Shown: piece by piece, positions 350 through 56,891 of the stretch | Position numbering within the stretch: position 1 is the stretch's first letter | How the letters are laid out: each line of letters starts with the position of its first letter | From: Minisyncoccota bacterium | GTDB taxonomy: Bacteria; Patescibacteriota; Minisyncoccia; Phycocordibacterales; XYD1-FULL-46-19 | DNA: 64,000 nt | Direction: 5' to 3' | Assembly (NCBI GenBank): GCA_041665625.1 | Contig: JBAYIK010000001.1 | Coordinates: 196,341 to 260,340, forward strand | Made by a program: the position numbers and the translations under genes | The notes under the pieces: model-generated | Databases searched by the model: none | What the model was told of the DNA's origin: nothing | The model's input: only the letters and a program-made list of their open reading frames with translations

Positions 350-1587
350 TCTTCTACAATACCCTAACTCGCGTTAAAGAAAAATTTGTCCCAGTTAGCG
401 CTGGGTCTAAAGCTGTGAATCTCTATGTTTGTGGCCCAACGGTCTATAACTATGCTCATATTGGGAACCTGCGATCATACATTTTTGCTGATCTTGTTTA
501 TCGTACGCTCCGCTTTGCCGACTACGATGTGCGCTGGGTCATGAACATTACCGATGTCGATGACAAAACAATCAAGGGAACGATTGCCAAGTATGGAGAA
601 AATGCCGGAGTCAATGAATTAAAAAAATATACTGAAGAGTATACTCAAGCTTTTCTAGCCGATCTGGACAAACTTAATGTGGAGAGAAAAAACATTAAGC
701 TTATCAATGTCACCGAGGTCATTCCCCAAATTCAGAAATTTATTATTGAGTTAATTGATAAGGGCTACGCTTATAAGGCTGACGACGGGAGCACCTACTT
801 CAGCATTGATAAGTACCAGGAAGTTTTTAATAATTATGGCGAACTCGTTGGCGAAAAATTCTTAGAGGGCAAGCAGATTGGGGCCAGAGTAAAAGTAGAC
901 GAATATGAAAAGGACAATTTGAGCGACTTCGCTCTATGGAAAGCGCGGACCCCTGAAGATGGCAACATCTACTGGGATCACGAGACCTTAGGAGAGGGTC
1001 GTCCCGGTTGGCATATTGAATGCTCGGTTATCAACAATGTCGCCTTCGGTGATAAGACCGTTGACATCCACACTGGTGGTGTTGATCTCGCCTTCCCCCA
1101 CCACACCAATGAGATGGCCCAAAGTGAGGCCCATAACGACAAACCCTTTGTGAAATATTGGCTTCATCCGGAGCATCTCCTTGTTGATAATAAAAAAATG
1201 GCCAAATCGTTAAATAATTTTTATACCCTGACCGACATCAAAGACAAACACTTTAACCCTATTAGCTACCGTTACATTCTCTTGCAGTCTAGCTATAAAC
1301 AAACCACTAACTTTACCTGGGAATCACTTGAGGCCGGAGCTCGCGGTTATGAGAATTTGAAAAGTAAAATTTCTCATCTTAAAAAACAAACAAATTTTTT
1401 CAAATTAATATTAGCTAAAATTGACGAAACTTATCTTAAAGATTTTTCAGCCAAAATTGGTGTGATGAATACCGCCGCTGGACTCGCCTCCTTGCAAGGA
1501 GTTCTCTCCGCCAAAGATCTCACCCCAGCCGAGAAACTCAAACTTATCAAAAAATTTGATGAGGTTCTAGGGTTAAGACTTGTATGA
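340..1587 (+). CDS. cysS: cysteine--tRNA ligase
   Basis: Class I HIGH motif 'YNYAHIGN', KMSKS-like 'KMAKS', and a zinc-binding Cys, over 415 aa. Confidence 0.9.
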   Translation: MDLVFYNTLTRVKEKFVPVSAGSKAVNLYVCGPTVYNYAHIGNLRSYIFADLVYRTLRFADYDVRWVMNITDVDDKTIKGTIAKYGENAGVNELKKYTEEYTQAFLADLDKLNVERKNIKLINVTEVIPQIQKFIIELIDKGYAYKADDGSTYFSIDKYQEVFNNYGELVGEKFLEGKQIGARVKVDEYEKDNLSDFALWKARTPEDGNIYWDHETLGEGRPGWHIECSVINNVAFGDKTVDIHTGGVDLAFPHHTNEMAQSEAHNDKPFVKYWLHPEHLLVDNKKMAKSLNNFYTLTDIKDKHFNPISYRYILLQSSYKQTTNFTWESLEAGARGYENLKSKISHLKKQTNFFKLILAKIDETYLKDFSAKIGVMNTAAGLASLQGVLSAKDLTPAEKLKLIKKFDEVLGLRLV

Positions 1588-2546: not shown

Positions 2547-4304
2547 ATGGAAACGCCACTGGAAACGATGCAGATGGACATAGGTCTTTTGTTTGTCTTC
2601 GCCGCGCTGTTCGGGCTAATCTTCAAGATAGCTCGGCAGCCCATGATCCCCGCCTTCGTCTTGGCTGGGGTTATCGCTGGTCCGCTCGGCCTCGGCTGGG
2701 TGACCAGAGTGGAGACAACCTACGACCTTTCCGAAATCGCGGTCACGATCATGCTGTTCGTGATCGGGATCGAGATGGATTTGAGCCGACTAAAGAAATT
2801 GGGGCTGGTCGCCGTTGGTGGCGGACTGCTCCAAGTCCTCATCACTGGGGTCATCGGCTTCGGTCTGGCCAAAGTCTTAGGAATGAGCTACATCGCCGGT
2901 TTCTATATAGGCGCGGCGGTATCATTCTCGTCGACAATGTTGGTCGTCAAGGTGTTGGGTGAGAAGTATGACCTGAACACCCTCTACGGGCGCATCAGTA
3001 TAGGTATCCTAGTGATGCAAGACGTGCTGGCGATCTTCGCCCTGTCAGCCCTGACCACCGCTGACAACTTCTCATTCGACGAGCTCTTGTCGCGAGGCAC
3101 TGCGGCAGCGGGGTTGATACTCCTGATCGTCTTCGTTTGTGGGCAATGGGTTTTCCCGCGCCTGTTCAAATGTGTGGCCCGGGAAAGAGAGACCCTGTTC
3201 GTTGTCGCCATGGGCCTCGTATTCGTCTGCGCATTCTATGCCACACGGACGAAGTTGACCATGGGCATTGGTTCGTTCCTCGCGGGTCTCTCAATGGCGC
3301 GCCTGGCTTATCAGCATGAGCTGATTGGCGACTTCAAGGCACTGAAGGGGTTCTTCACAGTCCTCTTCTTCGCGGCCTTGGGGTTGCAATTAGCCCCGGC
3401 GACAGAAGGAGCGTCACTCGCATCCTTTGGCCTGGTGATATACAGTCACCTGGCCCTCATCGTCCTGATGAGTGTAGTCGTGATTGTTGTAAAGCCCTTG
3501 CTCGTAATGCTGATCGTCAGTGTGTTCGGCTACGAGCGCTCGTCGGCGTTCAACACGGGTTTGGCCCTCGGCCAGTTGTCGGAGTTTAGCCTGGTGCTCG
3601 TGGCCCAGGGCATAGCCCAGAAACACCTGCCCGCAAATCTGCTACCGCCCTTCATCGTGGTGACGGTCGTATCCATGACCATCTCTTCGTACCTCCTGAA
3701 GTACAATCTGTCGCTCTACCAACGGGTGCGTTCGCACCTCCAGTGGCTCGACAAGTTGGCGTTCTGGAGACAAGCACCACCGGAGCAAGAGACTCCGATA
3801 GAGTGTGACATCATCTTGGCGGGAGTAGACCGTCTGGGCAAATCCGTGGAGCGGGCCTTGAGGGACCGAGGGGACAAGTACATGACCTTCGACCACAACC
3901 CCGATATCTATGGTGACCTGCTAAGAGACGGCGTCCCTTGTCGCTTTGGAGATGTCTGCTGCGAGGAAGTCCGCGACGGAATTGATCTGGCCAAGGTCAA
4001 AACGGTCATCTCGACCATACCAGACGTCAACGACAACGGCGTGCTGCTGAACCACCTGAGGCGGGACAATCCCGAGGCGAATTACGTCGCCATCACGTCC
4101 TCGAACCGGACGGCCCTCGGTCTCTATGAGCGGGGGGTCCACCTCGTCATAGTTACGCACATGCTGGCGGCGGCCGCTCTGGGCTGTGCTCGGGGAGCAA
4201 CTGTCCCCGATCTGAGCATTGAGATGCTCCTCAAGCCCGGCGAAGAGCTCCGGAAGAAGGGGCAGGAACACCGTCAGAGGCTCCTCGAGGAGAGCAAGAA
4301 GTAG
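2547..4304 (+). CDS. monovalent cation:proton antiporter (CPA2/Kef-type) with C-terminal RCK/TrkA-N domain
   Basis: SD GGAAGGAG lies 7 nt before the ATG. About 12 TM helices, then 'ILAGVDRLG' Rossmann-like NAD-binding (TrkA_N). Markedly GC-rich compared with its flanks. Confidence 0.8.
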   Translation: METPLETMQMDIGLLFVFAALFGLIFKIARQPMIPAFVLAGVIAGPLGLGWVTRVETTYDLSEIAVTIMLFVIGIEMDLSRLKKLGLVAVGGGLLQVLITGVIGFGLAKVLGMSYIAGFYIGAAVSFSSTMLVVKVLGEKYDLNTLYGRISIGILVMQDVLAIFALSALTTADNFSFDELLSRGTAAAGLILLIVFVCGQWVFPRLFKCVARERETLFVVAMGLVFVCAFYATRTKLTMGIGSFLAGLSMARLAYQHELIGDFKALKGFFTVLFFAALGLQLAPATEGASLASFGLVIYSHLALIVLMSVVVIVVKPLLVMLIVSVFGYERSSAFNTGLALGQLSEFSLVLVAQGIAQKHLPANLLPPFIVVTVVSMTISSYLLKYNLSLYQRVRSHLQWLDKLAFWRQAPPEQETPIECDIILAGVDRLGKSVERALRDRGDKYMTFDHNPDIYGDLLRDGVPCRFGDVCCEEVRDGIDLAKVKTVISTIPDVNDNGVLLNHLRRDNPEANYVAITSSNRTALGLYERGVHLVIVTHMLAAAALGCARGATVPDLSIEMLLKPGEELRKKGQEHRQRLLEESKK

Positions 4305-8018: not shown

Positions 8019-8149
8019 TAATAAAACGAATTACTAATAATTTTCTAAAATAATAATTACTTAAACATTGACAAAGCACTAAAAGAATGCTAATAATTAG
8101 AGCGGAAACGCTCATACCGAGCGCTGATCCTAAGTTTGAACAGAAGGAG

Positions 8150-8518
8150 ATGATAACCGTGCCTCTGCAACAGCAATTTGTCAGGGAGGCCGCCGGCCTC
8201 ACCGACGACCAGATCGGGGCGGCCAACGAGAGCCTGCCCGAGAAAGTAGACGGGGAGGTGGTCCTCGCGGTCTTGGAAGGAGACCTCAGTCGTTTCGTGG
8301 CCCTTTCCCTCCACAAGGTCAACGCCATGGAAGATTGGTCCAAAGACCCCGCGATCAAGACCCCCGCACAGAAGGTTGCCTTCCAGAGGCAGACCGAAAT
8401 CCTGGCCCGTTGGGTCTGGGACGAGGTCGAGTATGCCTTCCCGGAGACCGCCAGGAAGGAAGGGCCTTACGCCCACAGCCTACGCCGCGGTTGGAAAGTC
8501 GTCCTCCCCTCGAAGTAA
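8150..8518 (+). CDS. hypothetical protein, member 1 of a GC-rich paralog family
   Basis: SD GAAGGAGA before the ATG at 8150 (track ORF from 8087). Shares 'GEVVLAVLEG...MEDWSKDP...LARWVWDEVEYAFPE' motifs with 11188, 25994 and 27862. GC-rich. Confidence 0.6.
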   Translation: MITVPLQQQFVREAAGLTDDQIGAANESLPEKVDGEVVLAVLEGDLSRFVALSLHKVNAMEDWSKDPAIKTPAQKVAFQRQTEILARWVWDEVEYAFPETARKEGPYAHSLRRGWKVVLPSK

Positions 8519-9683: not shown

Positions 9684-10052
9684 TTATCTTATTATACTCA
9701 AAATTTTATTCAGCCACAATTGTCGTGGGAGACGACGGAGTTCTTCTCTTATTTCCAAATGATTGGGAAAAGTTTGAGCCACCAAATTCCAAAAATTTGC
9801 CGAGTGATTGAACTCTCGCAAATGGCATAGCTCATGCACAATGATGTAGTCGGCGAGGTGTTCGGGGATTAAAGCAATTTTGTAATTAAAATTTAGATTA
9901 CCACGCGTTGAGCAACTCCCCCACCGCGTCTTCTGATTCCGAATACTAATACGCCTCACCGACACTTGATATATTGGGCTAAAATGTTCAATACGCCGCT
10001 TGGCCAAGGCTCGCGCTGCTTCACGATGTTTTAGATAGTGACTTTTCCGCAT
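9684..10052 (-). CDS. YgjP-like (DUF45) metal-dependent hydrolase
   Basis: 'HELCHLREFNHSANFW' matches the HExxH-containing DUF45/WLM-like motif. Confidence 0.7.
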   Translation of the reverse strand: MRKSHYLKHREAARALAKRRIEHFSPIYQVSVRRISIRNQKTRWGSCSTRGNLNFNYKIALIPEHLADYIIVHELCHLREFNHSANFWNLVAQTFPNHLEIREELRRLPRQLWLNKILSIIR

Positions 10053-10085
10053 TTTTTATAATCTATTATAACATAGGTCACGGGC

Positions 10086-10114
10086 TTGCAATCTTTTGTA
10101 GGCTGTGTTACACT
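10086..10114 (+). promoter_or_regulatory. sigma70-like promoter TTGCAA-17-TACACT
   Basis: Near-consensus hexamers with 17-bp spacing. The TSS is predicted near 10121 and drives the C-rich transcript. Confidence 0.55.
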
Positions 10115-10120
10115 ATGAGC

Positions 10121-10356
10121 AGGTCAAAAGCCTGGTCTTTATATCACTTATACCCGGAGTCGTGCAGTTCCCCCTCTACCCCCCCTCCATACTGCGCGAC
10201 TCCGGTCTTTCCTTTCACATTTCGATCCCCCTTCGGGACCGAACAGATACCTCCCCCTCCCCTAGACGCCGGCTGGGACTCGCTACCCTCCCCCTCCTTG
10301 GTCTTAGCCGGCCACAAATCCTCCGGATGGTGCACCCTGCGCCATCCGGTTTTTCT
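10121..10356 (+). ncRNA. unclassified structured C-rich small RNA candidate, about 236 nt
   Basis: Bounded by the promoter and a strong intrinsic terminator (CCGGATGGTGC..GCGCCATCCGG plus UUUUUCUUUU). The 14-bp hairpin 10154-10207 has a 24-nt C-rich loop. A second hairpin spans GCCGGCU..AGCCGGC. A CUUCGG tetraloop and three 'CCUCCCCCUCC'-type motifs are present. The six-frame ORFs here give only proline-rich translations. Confidence 0.5.
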
Positions 10357-10380
10357 TTTGTTTAATAAGTCCTTTCTTAT

Positions 10381-10665
10381 TTATTTGGCTTCGTCGTCAG
10401 AATTTTTCAAATCAGCCATCTGGATCGGACTCTGGATCTTGGGCGGAGTCATATCAATTGTTCCGAATTGCTTTTCATAATTAGCAATTTGATCGTTCAT
10501 CCATAAAGCAATGCTCTTCATAATTTGCGGAGTCGTGGCAAAAGAATCAAGGCTATTCCCTGAAGTTAGTGCAAAAGAAAACAAGTCTTTACCAAAGGCC
10601 CCCAGGGCCCCATCACAGAATTTCTTTGGTAGTTGATTAAAGTCTACTTGTTTGGGATCAATCAT
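10381..10665 (-). CDS. hypothetical small protein (possibly DUF3467-like)
   Basis: 94 aa; weak resemblance '...IANYEKQFGTI'. Confidence 0.45.
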   Translation of the reverse strand: MIDPKQVDFNQLPKKFCDGALGAFGKDLFSFALTSGNSLDSFATTPQIMKSIALWMNDQIANYEKQFGTIDMTPPKIQSPIQMADLKNSDDEAK

Positions 10666-11187: not shown

Positions 11188-11652
11188 ATGGCAGTAATTG
11201 AGCTGGAGAAGTTAACCCAACGTGCCCCAACTAAAGAGGAGAACCGAATGTTCACCGACAACACCCTTGACGAGGTAGGAGAGATCAGAAAAGTCTTTCT
11301 TGCCGTTGCCGAGGAAAAACTTCCCGACAGCCCCCCAGACGGTTTTACCGTCCTGGGTAACATCGAGGACGCGAGGCTCCGAAGACTCTGGCTTCTCATG
11401 AAGTCCAAGGCCCAGCAAATGGAGAACTGGGTCAAACCCGACAGCGGGCAAAGAGGCTTCTCCGTCACGAGTGGAGAAATCTCCAAGCTCGATAAGGAGC
11501 TGGTCTTTATCCGCCAGTTGTTCTGGCTCGAGCTACAGATGCTCTTCCCGCAGCTCGACAGAATCATCCTGTGTCCATCCGCAATGATCAAAGGCTGGCA
11601 AGTCGCGATCAAATACCCCGAACGCGACCCAGTCGATGAACTGGCGACCTAA
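11188..11652 (+). CDS. hypothetical protein, member 2 of the GC-rich paralog family
   Basis: Motifs 'GFTVLGNIED...QQMENWVKPD...FIRQLFWLELQMLFPQ' parallel 8150..8518. GC-rich. Confidence 0.6.
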   Translation: MAVIELEKLTQRAPTKEENRMFTDNTLDEVGEIRKVFLAVAEEKLPDSPPDGFTVLGNIEDARLRRLWLLMKSKAQQMENWVKPDSGQRGFSVTSGEISKLDKELVFIRQLFWLELQMLFPQLDRIILCPSAMIKGWQVAIKYPERDPVDELAT

Positions 11653-11668
11653 CCCCGGCCCACTGGCC

Positions 11669-11709
11669 ATATAGCCGTTGCCCCACCCTGGGGCCACGGC
11701 TATGTTTTT
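11669..11709 (+). terminator. intrinsic terminator (first of a tandem pair)
   Basis: ATAGCCGT-TG-CCCCACCCTGGGG-CC-ACGGCTAT then GTTTTTAT. Confidence 0.65.
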
Positions 11710-22436: not shown

Positions 22437-22467
22437 TATCGATATCGTAACATTTTATTAATTTTAT

Positions 22468-22500
22468 TAAAACAACATGCCGCCGGCGGGAGAACCCCGT
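22468..22500 (-). terminator. GC-rich hairpin terminator
   Basis: GCCGCCGGCGGG..CCCGTCGGCGGC followed on the minus strand by a T-rich tract. Downstream of the basic-protein gene. Confidence 0.5.
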
Positions 22501-22531
22501 CGGCGGCTAGAAAAAACTCGAACACTATCCC

Positions 22532-22840
22532 CTACTTGTCGGTGCGGTGATAGTCCCGGCCCTCGCGCAAGGCCTTCTTGCGGAGTTGAGCGTTCCGAAC
22601 GCCGGCTGTGGTCTTGCCGACCAGCCCGAAGGCATCGGCCTGAAGCCCGGCCTCGCGGACATGAAAGGGTGTCTTACCAGCAACAAGCGTCGCCTTGCTC
22701 CGTTCGCCGACGTCGTCGCCATGAGAGACCTTGCTCCCCGTGTAGGCGACTTTGGCCTTCTTCGCCTTGGCCTTCTTGCTGGTCGTACGGGAAAGTCTGG
22801 TCCCTTTTTTCTTTTTCTCCTTGCTCTTCTTTTTCGGCAA
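22532..22840 (-). CDS. lysine-rich basic hypothetical protein (GC-rich insert)
   Basis: AAGGAGG SD 5 nt before an in-frame TTG at 22840 (track ATG at 22906). 'PKKKSKEKKKKG...KKAKAKKAK' tail. Opposite-strand ORFs overlap it. Strand chosen on the SD. Confidence 0.45.
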   Translation of the reverse strand: MPKKKSKEKKKKGTRLSRTTSKKAKAKKAKVAYTGSKVSHGDDVGERSKATLVAGKTPFHVREAGLQADAFGLVGKTTAGVRNAQLRKKALREGRDYHRTDK

Positions 22841-22943
22841 AATGACCTCCTTCTCGCTATGACGCCATGAGCAATTCATGTGCGTCGGTTTGTTATTGTC
22901 CAACAAGAATCTACCACAAAACCAGCGGGCCTGGCAAGATTAC

Positions 22944-24937: not shown

Positions 24938-24971
24938 CTTAGAATTATAACAAAAAGAAGATCACTTGGCG

Positions 24972-25993: not shown

Positions 25994-26662
25994 GTGGCAG
26001 ACCCCAAACAGAAAGAGAAAACCCCAAGGAGGCAGCTAAGTCCCGACTGTCGGGCAAAGGTCTCCAAAGCCTGGGCCCAATGCCTCGCCGACCCCGAAAC
26101 CCCAACCCCCTTTGCCCAAGGGACCCACGCTGTCTACAACGGGAGCACAATCCCCAACCTCATCATTGAGGGAATCAGGGGCCAGATGGAAGATGAGGGA
26201 AAGTTCTTCAAGCCCGAGGACGAGGTCAGCATTTTCTTCGAGATCAGCGGGGTAGTTCTTCCCCGACACCTGACAGTGACCGGAGGACTAGAGAGCTTCC
26301 TCATGGAGATCGAAGACCAGTTCTTGAACGGCTGGCCCTTCCAAGGTGAGAAGCCTGGTGCGAAGAGAACGCTCAGCGATATCGTTCGACTAAGGGTCAA
26401 GACCGCGATCAAGGAATCGGTGAGCAACGCCAACGTCGCGAGAGAAGACGTCGCGGGGATCTTGGCAACCGAGATCATGAGCAAGTACTACCTCGAAACC
26501 GAGGAGACCTCGGCTGAGCTCTTCGCCGTCTTCGACACGGTGATGGACAGTCTGGGTCAGAGAGGCCTCGAAGAATTCTTTGACAGCTTCGAATCCGAAG
26601 TCCTCAACCACCCCCTGCTGAAAGATGCTCCGCCCGAGCAACAGGAGATCCCCGAGACTTGA
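25994..26662 (+). CDS. hypothetical protein, member 3 of the GC-rich paralog family
   Basis: 'GVVLPRHLTVTGGLESFLMEIEDQFLNGWPFQGEKPG' parallels 'G.VVL...L...ME.W.KP' of the other members. GC-rich. Confidence 0.55.
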   Translation: MADPKQKEKTPRRQLSPDCRAKVSKAWAQCLADPETPTPFAQGTHAVYNGSTIPNLIIEGIRGQMEDEGKFFKPEDEVSIFFEISGVVLPRHLTVTGGLESFLMEIEDQFLNGWPFQGEKPGAKRTLSDIVRLRVKTAIKESVSNANVAREDVAGILATEIMSKYYLETEETSAELFAVFDTVMDSLGQRGLEEFFDSFESEVLNHPLLKDAPPEQQEIPET

Positions 26663-31902: not shown

Positions 31903-32526
31903 CTACCCTCTTTGTCGACGATGGAAGTAGTACTCGGGGTTAATCACACGCGGGACTGCGTCGGCCAGGCAGGTCGCTCCCCAGACCACGCAGATGAAAC
32001 CCACAACATAAGGGATGAATACGGCGGTAAAGCCTCTCCACCCACTCTCCGAGAAAAGGTTCTGGCTGTCGAAGATTGACTCTCCCTTTTCGCATTTCCA
32101 CTTTCTCCTGACGACCGACGAGAAGACGACCGCCACAAGGAACAGAGTCCATGGCACGATCAACTCGCTGATCGCCGCCGCGTATTGCTGCTTGACGAAG
32201 ATCTTCCAAATCTGCGGCGACACCTTCTCGAGTGTCACAGAGATGGAGCTCACCAACTGGGTGACCATGTCGAGCGCCCGATCGGCGACTCTGGACATGT
32301 CCACGCTTGGCTTTTCGAGGCTGTTTGGATCCGTCTTGGCCGGCGCGGCCTTTGGCGTCTCCACCCCGAACAATCCGACCAGAGACTGAAGCTGGGCCTG
32401 AGCCGTCGCCTTCTCAGCCGGTGTGAACACCTTCTGCGAGGTATCGATGGGGGCCTCTTGCGCCATCGAAACGACGGGGACGCAGAGGAACGACAGGACG
32501 ACTGCCAACAAAACGAGCTTATGCAT
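31903..32526 (-). CDS. hypothetical secreted protein (GC-rich insert)
   Basis: SD GGAAGAAGGAAAC then ATG. Signal peptide 'MHKLVLLAVVLSFLCVPVVSMA', C-terminal TM. The last 14 codons read through into AT-rich flank DNA. Confidence 0.55.
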   Translation of the reverse strand: MHKLVLLAVVLSFLCVPVVSMAQEAPIDTSQKVFTPAEKATAQAQLQSLVGLFGVETPKAAPAKTDPNSLEKPSVDMSRVADRALDMVTQLVSSISVTLEKVSPQIWKIFVKQQYAAAISELIVPWTLFLVAVVFSSVVRRKWKCEKGESIFDSQNLFSESGWRGFTAVFIPYVVGFICVVWGATCLADAVPRVINPEYYFHRRQRG

Positions 32527-32619
32527 TGAACGGTTTCCTTCTTCCGATTGTAAGACCGACACCATGTCGGTCATCATTTCTGGTTCATACTATATAGATT
32601 AATATTGATTCTGTCAAGA

Positions 32620-32724: not shown

Positions 32725-32796
32725 TGACCTCACGGGGAATCGAACCCCGATTACCGCCTTGAGAAGGCGATGTCCTAACCGTTAGACGATGAGGCC
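32725..32796 (-). tRNA. tRNA-Glu (anticodon CUC)
   Basis: Manual cloverleaf: acceptor GGCCTCA/TGAGGTC, D-stem GTCT/GGAC, anticodon stem-loop with loop TTCTCAA (U33, anticodon CTC, A37), T-arm CGGGG-TTCGATT-CCCCG, discriminator A, CCA not encoded. Confidence 0.75.
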
Positions 32797-37342: not shown

Positions 37343-37801
37343 CTAAAACATTCCTACTTCACTGAGACGCTCGGCCAGCACGTCGGCCTGCTTCTCGACC
37401 TTGTCGATATTTTCCTTCCATTTACGGTCATCCCAAATTTCTATTCTCTCAGACAAACCCACAACCACCACCCGGCTCTTGAGGTCGGCAAAATCTTTGA
37501 GATGATCAGGAATAAGAACTCGCCCCATGGCATCAATCTCTACCTCGAAGGCGCTGCCTAAAATAAAACGGGAAAAAGAACGAGCCGCACTCTGAGTCAT
37601 AGGGAGTTTATCAATCTCGCCACTGACCTTCTTCCAACCTTCGAGAGTATAGGCAAAGAGACAAGAGTCGAGACCTTTAGTAATTACCATTTTCTTACCA
37701 ATTTCTTTACGGAAAGAGGCGGGCATTGAAATGCGCTTCTTATCATCTATGGTATGTCTAAATTCCCCGATTAACATCCTTCCCATTCTATCCCACTTCA
37801 T
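37343..37801 (-). CDS. mraZ: transcriptional regulator MraZ
   Basis: Duplicated 'DxxxR' MraZ domains: 'DDKKRISMP', 'DAMGRVLIP'. Confidence 0.85.
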   Translation of the reverse strand: MKWDRMGRMLIGEFRHTIDDKKRISMPASFRKEIGKKMVITKGLDSCLFAYTLEGWKKVSGEIDKLPMTQSAARSFSRFILGSAFEVEIDAMGRVLIPDHLKDFADLKSRVVVVGLSERIEIWDDRKWKENIDKVEKQADVLAERLSEVGMF

Positions 37802-37896
37802 GCCACTTCACAACAACCCTCCCCCACCTAAAACTGTGGATAACATAAAAAACCAAGCAACGCTTGGTTTTTTATGTTAATTTTTCTCTTTATTTA

Positions 37897-55001: not shown

Positions 55002-56891
55002 ATGAAAATAGTCACTGTTATCCCCCTAAAAAAAAATGTTTGGCGAGACAATTTGTCTTATTTTACGGCCCAAGATGCGCCTCTCGGTTCCCTAGCCACG
55101 GTGCCGGTGAGAGGACAACAGGTTTTAGCCCTAATTATCGACAGCCGTGAGGCAAGCGACCTAAAAAGCGAGCTCAAGAATGTCGACTGGCAACTCCGCA
55201 AAGTGACAAAGATAAGAAAAATAAACTACTTTGACGCCCAGTTTATGATGGCCGCCAACATCACCGCTGATTATTTTGCTACATCCACTGGCCCCGTTAT
55301 TAAAGCCACCATTCCTCAAGCCATTCTCGATGAGCTCCCTGAGGTCAAAGCAATAAAGGCCACCCCAACCGAAAAAATATTACCAGAAATCAACGCTGTC
55401 CAGGAACCAGAAGAGGAGCGACTCGCCCGTTACAAAAGTTTGATTCGCGAAGCTTTCGCCAAAAAACAATCAGTATACCTCTGTCTACCGACCAGCGCCG
55501 ACATCAATCGAATTATTGAACCGCTCAAAAAAGGAATTGAAAACTATGTCCTCGTCGGACACGGCACGCTCTCAAAAAAAGAACAAATTGATTTTTGGAA
55601 AAAAGCTCTTAGCACTGAGCACCCAATACTCGTTGTCGGCACTCCACTCTTCCTCTCTTTACCACGCGAAGACATAAGTACCATAATTATTGAGCACGAA
55701 AATTCTCCGGCCTACAAAATGATGGTTCGTCCCTTTATTGACTGGCGTTTCTTTATTGAAGAGCTTGTTAAACAAAAAGAAATAAGATTAATCTTAGGCG
55801 ACAGCGCTCTCCGTAGCGAAACAATATATCGTTTAGGGAAAAGTGAAGTAACAGCCCTCGGTTCGATCAAATATCGCTTTACCTCTAATGCCACCAACCA
55901 AATTATCCCCTTAACAAATGACAAGGATAAGACCAGTATCCTTGAAGCCACCAATGAGAGACTCAGAGAAAGAATTGAAAATGCTCTGGACAGTAACGAG
56001 AAAGTTTTTATTTATTCAGGGAGGAGAGGCCTTGCTCCCCTCACTATCTGTCGCGATTGTGGGACAGTAATGGCTTGCGATGTCTGTCACTTACCCCTGA
56101 CTATTCACCAGAACCCACGGCTCAAAGAAAGGGTCTTTATCTGTCACAAATGTGGTCAGGTCGTGGAGATTGAAGATGAGTGTAAAAACTGTAAAGGCCA
56201 ACGTCTCGCGATTATCGGCTTCGGTGTCGAAAAGATAGCGGAGGAACTGGCCACAAATTTCCCCAAAGCAACAATCTTTCGTCTTGATAGTGACAATGCC
56301 AAGACCAGTAAAAAAGCCGAAGAGATTATTCGTCAATTTAATAAGACACCTAATAGTATTTTGATCGGAACCGAAATGGCCCTTCACTATATAGACGGCC
56401 CAATAGATAACGTCTTCGCCGTAGGGCTTGATGCCTTCCTTGCTATGCCCGACTGGCGCGCTAGTGAAAAATTATTTTCCACTCTCATTAAGCTCAAACA
56501 ACTAACACGCAAACATTTTATTATCCAAACAAGACAGCCGGAAGAAAAAGTTTTTACTTATGTCACAGGAGGTAATCTTATCGACTTCTATCGTGACGAA
56601 ATTGCTGACCGTCAGGAGATGGGTTACCCACCCTTCAAAGTGCTTATTAAAATATCTTTGGCTGGGAGTTTGCCTGAAATTAGAAAGGAGATGTCCCGTT
56701 TAGAAAAAATGGTCGAAAAATGGCAGCCTCTTGGTTACCCCGATATCTCAAAAAACACCAAGGGTCTCCCGGTTTTAAATATCTTACTTCGTCTCCCCGC
56801 AAGCAATTGGCCCGATCCCGAATTATCAAAAATTCTCAAATCTCTCCCCCCCTCTTTCATCATTAACGTCGATCCCGAATCTGTGTTATAA
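55002..56891 (+). CDS. priA: primosomal protein N' (PriA)-like with degenerate helicase motifs
   Basis: N-terminal 3'-DNA-binding-like domain. Cys-rich Zn region 'CRDCG..CDVCH...CHKCG..CKNCKG'. Helicase C-terminus. No GxGKT Walker A. 'IIEHEN' replaces DEEHD. Confidence 0.75.
   Translation: MKIVTVIPLKKNVWRDNLSYFTAQDAPLGSLATVPVRGQQVLALIIDSREASDLKSELKNVDWQLRKVTKIRKINYFDAQFMMAANITADYFATSTGPVIKATIPQAILDELPEVKAIKATPTEKILPEINAVQEPEEERLARYKSLIREAFAKKQSVYLCLPTSADINRIIEPLKKGIENYVLVGHGTLSKKEQIDFWKKALSTEHPILVVGTPLFLSLPREDISTIIIEHENSPAYKMMVRPFIDWRFFIEELVKQKEIRLILGDSALRSETIYRLGKSEVTALGSIKYRFTSNATNQIIPLTNDKDKTSILEATNERLRERIENALDSNEKVFIYSGRRGLAPLTICRDCGTVMACDVCHLPLTIHQNPRLKERVFICHKCGQVVEIEDECKNCKGQRLAIIGFGVEKIAEELATNFPKATIFRLDSDNAKTSKKAEEIIRQFNKTPNSILIGTEMALHYIDGPIDNVFAVGLDAFLAMPDWRASEKLFSTLIKLKQLTRKHFIIQTRQPEEKVFTYVTGGNLIDFYRDEIADRQEMGYPPFKVLIKISLAGSLPEIRKEMSRLEKMVEKWQPLGYPDISKNTKGLPVLNILLRLPASNWPDPELSKILKSLPPSFIINVDPESVL

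Follow-up and report, generated by a model that had tools for sequence, protein, structure and literature searches.

We describe an intergenic element in a 64,000-nt stretch of DNA (contig JBAYIK010000001.1, positions 196,341 to 260,340; hereafter the window) from the metagenome-assembled genome (MAG) of an uncultured member of Candidatus Paceibacterota, in the Patescibacteria or candidate phyla radiation (CPR). The interval 10053-10380 of the window, located between two minus-strand genes, holds a C-rich, ORF-less plus-strand segment (ORF, open reading frame), and displays the anatomy of an independent, terminated, non-coding and structured RNA, in agreement with an original prediction made from the sequence without database searches, which had pointed to the same fold, terminator and lack of an ORF. 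Its sequence signals suggest that the element is probably transcribed as a discrete RNA. With less assurance, we favor the tentative reading that it encodes a lineage-specific small non-coding RNA (sRNA) of about 236 nt and was gained as a module, and that the C-rich seeds of this RNA would pair with G-rich RNA by analogy with C-rich-loop sRNAs from other bacteria.

The plus strand of the predicted RNA folds at -93.2 kcal/mol, as compared to an average of -58.7 for 200 dinucleotide shuffles (z = -7.95), none of which was as stable; the minus strand yields a z of only -3.16. The minimum-energy and centroid structures are identical and consist of five hairpins, the last one being the intrinsic terminator (Table 1). 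Their helices add up to 52 bp, with 46 Watson-Crick and 6 G.U pairs and no mismatch within any helix. On the opposite strand all six G.U pairs would turn into A.C mismatches, while the single A.C mismatch, in hairpin 2, favors the minus strand. The bias in G.U pairs, together with the direction of the U-tract, indicates that the plus strand is the folding strand. Of the individual hairpins foreseen in the original prediction, the one with CUUCGG was recovered as a small hairpin, and the GCCGGCU/AGCCGGC pairing extends into a longer stem closed by a C-rich loop, while hairpin 1 is present with its C-rich loop but differs in dimensions from the 14 bp and 24 nt that had been given for its stem and loop.

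Three C-rich tracts, all of them built around CCCCCUCC, are predicted to be unpaired (probabilities 0.92-1.00): one in each of the loops of hairpins 1 and 3, and one in the linker between hairpins 2 and 3. Three single-stranded copies of the same motif had been claimed, but the exact 11-mer CCUCCCCCUCC occurs only twice, at positions 10250 and 10287, 37 nt apart, and the hairpin-1 loop holds the variant CCCCCUCUACCCCCCCUCC. A scan of the window for CCUCCCCCUCC allowing one mismatch returned 5 matches as opposed to 1.13 expected, a number that was reached in none of 100 shuffles. Each 11-mer comprises two CCUCC cores, and CCUCC occurs six times in the 236 nt; the longest runs of C are 7 nt in loop 1 and 5 nt in motifs 2 and 3. 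The CCUCCUU sequence previously noticed in the third motif is indeed there, at 10293-10299. Overall, the 236 nt contain 95 C, 44 G, 60 U and 37 A, i.e. 40% C and 19% G, and the local GC content is 0.55-0.58 versus 0.43 for the window. The segment had been called compositionally anomalous; its raised GC content is not unique, as there are other high-GC islands in the window, and the distinctive trait is its strong excess of C over G.

Among the terminator-like hairpins on the plus strand of the window, the terminator ranks second in strength, and hairpins of this kind are also located at true gene ends in this genome. It had been described as an 11-bp stem with one mismatch; the strong hairpin with its U-tract was confirmed, but the stem is 12 bp long with one G.U pair. 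It faces the plus strand, on which no gene precedes it, and on the minus strand the hairpin is followed by AGGAUUUGUGG only. The three ORFs in the segment (86, 121 and 63 aa) are spurious: they are rich in Pro, Gly and Ser, the 86-aa and 121-aa ORFs begin upstream of the predicted transcription start site, the latter also crossing the terminator, and their concatenated translations have no relatives among 5.8 billion proteins, so that the claim of no plausible ORF holds. The promoter had been considered near-consensus. A TTGCAA-17-TACACT arrangement is present, with the -10 hexamer at 10109-10114 matching TATAAT at 4 of 6 positions after a 17-nt spacer, but it agrees with the consensus at only 8 of 12 positions (4 in each hexamer), and it was not listed by the promoter consensus scan; the better feature is the putative extended -10 element TGTTACACT. 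The promoter is plausible; the 5′ end of the RNA is a prediction, and an alternative start near 10069, from TTTTATAAT (10054-10062), is also possible.

Table 1. Coordinates of the element, its predicted parts and its neighbors in the window.
Feature	Position	Strand	Remarks
YgjP-like metallopeptidase-domain gene	9684-10052	-	Pfam PF01863, E = 1.5e-36
Exact TGTTATAAT promoter motif	10065-10073	-	Motif scan; 12 nt upstream of the YgjP-like ATG (10052); completed by the left edge of the insertion
Insertion, about 301 nt	10068-10368		Encloses all parts of the element; alignment with relatives L006 and L013, which lack these columns
Candidate -35 hexamer TTGCAA	10086-10091	+	4/6 consensus; palindromic, could also serve a divergent minus-strand promoter
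Candidate extended -10 (TGn) TGTTACACT	10106-10114	+	One mismatch from the genome's TGTTAYAAT motif
Predicted transcript, about 236-239 nt	10121-10359	+	5′ and 3′ ends predicted
Small 5′ hairpin, 4-5 bp	10121-10133	+	Predicted fold
Hairpin 1, 15 bp (one G.U), 22-nt C-rich loop	10154-10205	+	Predicted fold
C-rich motif 1, CCCCCUCUACCCCCCCUCC, hairpin 1 loop	10170-10188	+	Predicted unpaired probability 1.00
Hairpin 2, 4+4 bp with A.C internal mismatch, contains CUUCGG	10221-10243	+	Predicted fold
Linker, 24 nt, between hairpins 2 and 3		+	Predicted single-stranded
C-rich motif 2, CCUCCCCCUCCCC, single-stranded linker	10250-10262	+	Exact 11-mer; predicted unpaired probability 0.92
Hairpin 3, 13 bp (three G.U), 19-nt C-rich loop, GCCGGCU.../...AGCCGGC	10268-10312	+	Predicted fold
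C-rich motif 3, CCCUCCCCCUCCUU, hairpin 3 loop	10286-10299	+	Exact 11-mer; predicted unpaired probability 0.98
Intrinsic terminator: 12-bp stem (one G.U) and 3-nt CCC loop (10323-10349), then UUUUUCUUUU	10323-10359	+	-21.5 kcal/mol
94-aa DUF3467-like gene	10381-10665	-	Sub-threshold Pfam DUF3467 match; close homologs so named by some sources

The two flanking genes, whose proteins assign the contig to Candidatus Paceibacterota, are both on the minus strand, as originally predicted, and their arrangement in related genomes, examined through DUF3467 homologs, reveals that the element is an insertion. In the closest available relative (L006-L008), with a DUF3467 protein 95% identical to that in the window, the distance between the DUF3467 gene and the YgjP-like gene is 26 nt, and in a more distant one (L013; 79% identity) it is 4 nt. 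A comparison with the homologous intergenic region, proposed in the original prediction as a check for covariation, was made, but the relatives lack the element, and the comparison established its insertion status without gaining any homologs. No terminal inverted repeats or target-site duplications were seen by eye at the junctions, so that an origin from a transposon or a miniature inverted-repeat transposable element is not supported. As judged from the comparison with L006, the left edge of the insertion converts an ancestral GATAAT into an exact TGTTATAAT, a motif with 6 exact copies in the window, 4 of which lie 6-12 nt before ORF starts; by completing a promoter for the YgjP-like gene, the insertion apparently also rewired an operon. 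The locus itself is present in five contigs from JGI, ENA and Logan assemblies, and the retrieved intergenic sequences are identical over the stretch that each covers. The neighboring 94-aa DUF3467-like protein (homologs P0001-P0120) shows about 75-85% identity over 641 matches in Paceibacterota, which is unusually conserved for a protein of unknown function.

No Rfam 15 covariance model matched the element at gathering thresholds in a scan of the whole window, the only such match in the window being a tRNA-Glu at 32725-32796; this upholds the earlier statements that the RNA cannot be assigned to a standard family and does not resemble transfer-messenger RNA, RNase P, signal recognition particle RNA or 6S RNA; the element is not a tRNA either. 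Sub-threshold matches were limited to ar14 and Atu_C10, two alphaproteobacterial sRNAs with C-rich loops. The ar14 match scored 25.5 bits against a gathering threshold of 58.8, with E = 0.0074 on a 451-nt query, and in the whole-window scan its E value was 1, level with a spurious mir-186 match. The resemblance to ar14 and Atu_C10 is one of architecture and composition and is not evidence of homology.

Searches for relatives of the element by blastn in phage and plasmid collections returned no match, and five pattern scans of viral contigs yielded no homolog. We also scanned genome contigs for pairs of the motif, and metagenome contigs for motif pairs followed by a T-run. Among the matches listed in these scans were Pro/Gly-rich coding DNA, CT low-complexity DNA, alphaproteobacterial two-hairpin loci and CPR palindromic repeats, and blastn of the element against the listed matches revealed nothing similar. 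A covariance model of hairpins 1-3 (R1), searched over 281 fetched loci, gave strong matches only to the element itself; weak matches in loci from Saccharibacteria and metagenomes, with E values between about 1e-4 and 1e-2, were rejected as badly aligned C/G-rich palindromes. Neither the window nor the 10 kb directly upstream of it (L280) yielded a second copy of the element.

The palindromic repeats form clusters of hairpins made of CCUCCCCCUCC and its complement, in the arrangement CCTCCCCCTCC-nnn(n)-GGAGGGGGAGG; in many cases, ATTAAGGAGGGGGAGG and a T-run come next. They were seen in AT-rich contigs at L047 6600-6900, at L049 1376-1570, 5634-5834 and 7229-7412, and in L101, L211, L236, L248 and L249; L047 and L049 are Saccharibacteria MAG contigs, and the others are unclassified MAG or metagenome contigs. 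They appear to constitute a repeat family of their own, not homologous to the element.

The closest analogy is provided by the cuckoo/ar14 family (RF02344, including NfeR1 and CcsR/RSs0680), which is defined by repeated loop motifs resembling the anti-Shine-Dalgarno (anti-SD) sequence, for which pairing through C-rich seeds was proposed, and in which CCUCCUCCC is repeated unchanged from one hairpin loop to the next (PMC4615179, PMC10746234). A member comprises 2-4 neighboring hairpins, each 24-50 nt long and with a loop of 9-27 nt that contains the motif. The element likewise has a modular row of hairpins with variable stems, ends in an intrinsic terminator, and repeats one C-rich anti-SD-like motif in unpaired regions; its loops of 22 and 19 nt are within the family range, and ar14 is its best sub-threshold Rfam match. 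Hairpin 3 (45 nt, 19-nt loop) fits the cuckoo geometry, and hairpin 1 measures 52 nt with its 22-nt loop. However, its motif is CCUCCCCCUCC, while the defining CCUCCUCCC is absent from 10051-10380, its score is far under the gathering threshold, and its middle motif is placed in the linker rather than in a hairpin loop. Moreover, the host is a patescibacterium, whereas cuckoo RNAs are alphaproteobacterial, and the 74 kb examined contain one copy of the element, while a genome with cuckoo RNAs usually has several.

Actinobacterial 6C RNA (RF01066) uses C-rich loops as seeds for pairing with single-stranded G-rich regions of mRNAs, which requires neither Hfq nor ProQ (PMC6486639). The element shares with it the loops with C-runs, and such a chaperone-free mode of pairing would suit a small CPR genome. 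Unlike 6C, it is much longer (about 236 nt), has three motifs and is not found in a high-GC Gram-positive host; it does not match the 6C model even at E <= 10, and while 6C has two loops of at least six C each, only loop 1 of the element contains such a run (C7). The firmicute sRNAs RsaE/RoxS and RNAIII also employ unpaired C-rich (UCCC/CCCC) motifs as seeds, but they act largely on Shine-Dalgarno (SD) regions, and their Rfam models do not match the element. Finally, the two-hairpin loci from Brevundimonas and other alphaproteobacteria (L034, L119 and L018) display the same CCUCCCCCUCC in two loops followed by a terminator, but exhibit no similarity to the element beyond the motif in blastn and score at most 18 bits with its covariance model, so that the likeness appears to be convergent or limited to the motif. 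These loci (L034, about 1037-1136, minus strand; L119, about 3560-3660, plus strand; L018, 54-101, minus strand), with two hairpins carrying CCCCUCCCCCUCC in each loop and then a terminator, are themselves cuckoo-like sRNAs with a C-for-U variant of the motif, and have no Rfam match at gathering thresholds. The analogy with C-rich-loop sRNAs is apt, and the element has what is generally seen in terminated bacterial sRNAs, namely a strong terminator, a strong fold and no ORF, with a promoter that is only moderate; by each comparison that gave an outcome, it nevertheless falls outside cuckoo/ar14, 6C and Rfam families in general. It is plausibly a lineage-specific small RNA which resembles cuckoo/ar14, 6C and RsaE without belonging to them.

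We sought SD sequences in front of 67 long ORFs of the window, with starts assigned naively as the first ATG, and used 1679 ATGs as controls. SD-like tetramers precede 8 of the 67 ORFs (12%) and 10.8% of control ATGs, and only two clear SDs could be seen by eye, before the GC-richer plus-strand genes at 2547 and 27862. In contrast, 19 of the 67 ORFs (28%) have a -10-like hexamer with its end 4-11 nt ahead of the ATG, as compared to 5% of controls. With no SD enrichment and a frequent -10 box before the ATG, the window genes look largely leaderless or SD-independent, given this naive start assignment. Therefore, a general anti-SD role of the RNA is unlikely, and the targeting of SD regions suggested in the original prediction was not supported. 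Many genes in the window have a TGTTAYAAT/TATAAT box located 6-12 nt before their ATG, e.g. at 24952, 27812 and 10073 on the minus strand and at 56884 on the plus strand. No 16S gene is located within the 64 kb.

The best complementary sense-strand site in the window, as determined by an RNAduplex scan, is GGUGGGGGAGGGU at 37811-37830 on the minus strand, upstream of mraZ, where loop 3 would pair at 13 of 14 positions with an energy of -30 kcal/mol. We rejected this site as an RNA target, as it is upstream of a probable leaderless promoter and is probably not transcribed: the MraZ protein most likely begins with MLIGEF, encoded immediately after TTGTGA-17-TAGAAT, which would place the G-rich site outside the transcript. 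The site belongs to a G-rich array of GTGG(G) repeats (GGTGGGGGAGGG, GAAGTGGC, GAAGTGGGA and GAATGGGA) at 37780-37835 on the minus strand, just upstream of and overlapping the same promoter. MraZ binds a series of GTGG(G) repeats in other bacteria, and this region looks like an MraZ operator.

In the reading that we tentatively favor, a weak sigma-70-type promoter of its own would drive plus-strand transcription of the element up to the strong intrinsic terminator, the row of hairpins in the RNA would hold the three C-rich tracts single-stranded, and these seeds may pair in antisense fashion, independently of chaperones, with G-rich stretches in other RNAs. Because most window genes appear to be without SD sequences, the RNA would be expected to act on a limited number of G-rich sites and not on ribosome-binding sites in general. 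Several observations weigh against this reading. The promoter is weak, with its 8 of 12 consensus matches, and is not strong evidence, because one-mismatch copies of the -10 motif are common: there are 38 one-mismatch TGTTAYAAT sites in the window, including TGTTACACT, and only 5 of them precede genes. The RNAduplex scan provided no convincing RNA target in the window, and the lack of SD enrichment removes the most common class of targets of C-rich sRNAs. No homolog emerged from Rfam, phages, plasmids, the protein search or the covariance model, nor among the matches listed in the contig scans, and, because the closest relative lacks it, the element appears to be of recent origin or a horizontal acquisition, and may not have become part of a regulatory circuit. 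Nevertheless, a strand-biased structure, a terminator with no plus-strand gene in front of it and repeated motifs that stay unpaired would be hard to obtain by chance or through decay, which favors a real and recent sRNA gene. The element could also be a leftover, without function, of DNA that was rearranged or acquired horizontally, with hairpins and terminator retained by chance. This would fit the orphan status, the absence from the relative with the 95% identical protein, the weak promoter and the other atypical, high-GC3 orphan ORFs on the same strand in the region, but the z of -7.95, the strand-biased G.U pairs, the intact terminator and the duplicated exact 11-mer predicted to be unpaired speak against it, and we assign it a minor share of the probability; besides, the absence of homologs is itself weakly established, as the genome and metagenome scans were judged among the matches listed.

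The insertion may also have acted mainly in cis, splitting an ancestral DUF3467-YgjP-TspO operon by means of a terminator hairpin and by giving the YgjP-like gene an exact TGTTATAAT promoter that it did not have before, with the plus-strand RNA as a by-product, or as an antisense partner that pairs with minus-strand read-through and triggers its processing. The closeness of the two genes in relatives, the position of the completed motif, shared by 4 of its 6 exact copies, and the perfect complementarity of any plus-strand transcript to minus-strand read-through are consistent with such a role, to which we assign a minor share of the probability: a simple insulator requires neither 52 bp of plus-biased helices nor three exposed and repeated C-rich motifs, and the U-tract of the terminator faces the plus strand, leaving the minus strand with AGGAUUUGUGG only. 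The three to five exposed copies of one short motif, with six CCUCC in 236 nt, could instead titrate a protein with a preference for C-rich RNA, in the way that CsrB sequesters CsrA; KH-domain proteins of the KhpA/KhpB type, cold-shock proteins and Rho are examples. The lack of good RNA targets and of SD enrichment in the window would agree with such a decoy, but nothing in the sequence separates protein binding from RNA pairing, and we consider it improbable. Even less probable is the general anti-SD regulator or mimic of the 16S 3′ end, occluding many ribosome-binding sites, that was put forward in the original prediction: the paired CCUCC cores, the CCUCCUU at the end of motif 3 and the precedents of cuckoo/ar14, RNAIII and RsaE speak for it, while SD-like motifs no more frequent than in controls, the -10 boxes in front of ATGs and the restriction of clear SDs to two GC-richer plus-strand genes speak against it, and the case for 16S mimicry comes down to 7 matching nt within a C/U-rich motif. 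A variant in which the RNA would act as a selective silencer or sponge of SD-dependent foreign mRNAs, from phages or acquired genes, thereby distinguishing self from non-self at translation initiation, is a very long shot, although the lack of SD enrichment, the SDs at the GC-richer genes 2547 and 27862, and the recent acquisition of the RNA gene are hints consistent with it. Hardly any weight is given to a functional minus strand, i.e. a G-rich leader with GGAGGGGGAGG tracts forming G-quadruplexes or standby sites that control the YgjP-like gene. Both neighbors are encoded on the minus strand, which has G5-G7 runs and turns the A.C mismatch of hairpin 2 into a G.U pair, but six G.U pairs become A.C mismatches on it, its fold is weaker, and the exact promoter of the YgjP-like gene itself is located 12 nt before the ATG, downstream of the G-rich tracts.

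Four orphan ORFs in the window have no Pfam match and a GC content at third codon positions (GC3) of 0.68-0.75, in a genome with 43% GC: 8087-8518, 11188-11652 and 26186-26662 on the plus strand and 31903-32577 on the minus strand, so that three of the four are on the plus strand amid mostly minus-strand genes. Those of 143 aa and 154 aa, which flank the neighborhood of the element, are distant paralogs (24% identity, E = 3e-5), and the plus-strand terminator that is strongest in the window (about 11665-11704) comes after the 154-aa ORF. In the GC-rich island at 22461-22906 (GC 0.65), the longest plus-strand ORF is Arg-rich nonsense, while the minus strand encodes a 124-aa lysine-rich basic protein at 22532-22906. 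The segment 22461-22850 was considered as a second structured RNA and rejected in view of its z of -2.2 and the plausible minus-strand ORF for a basic protein; the island is probably coding.

Patescibacteria have tiny genomes with few conventional regulators, and our literature search found no described regulatory RNA in Patescibacteria/CPR bacteria. As a single-lineage orphan, the element is a reasonable candidate and neither a discovery nor a surprise. The presence of anti-SD-like seeds beside genes that apparently do without SDs constitutes a small paradox, and its resolution would show what role C-rich seeds can play when ribosome-binding sites are not their targets. If verified, an sRNA in Patescibacteria/CPR would be a first foothold for post-transcriptional regulation in this group.

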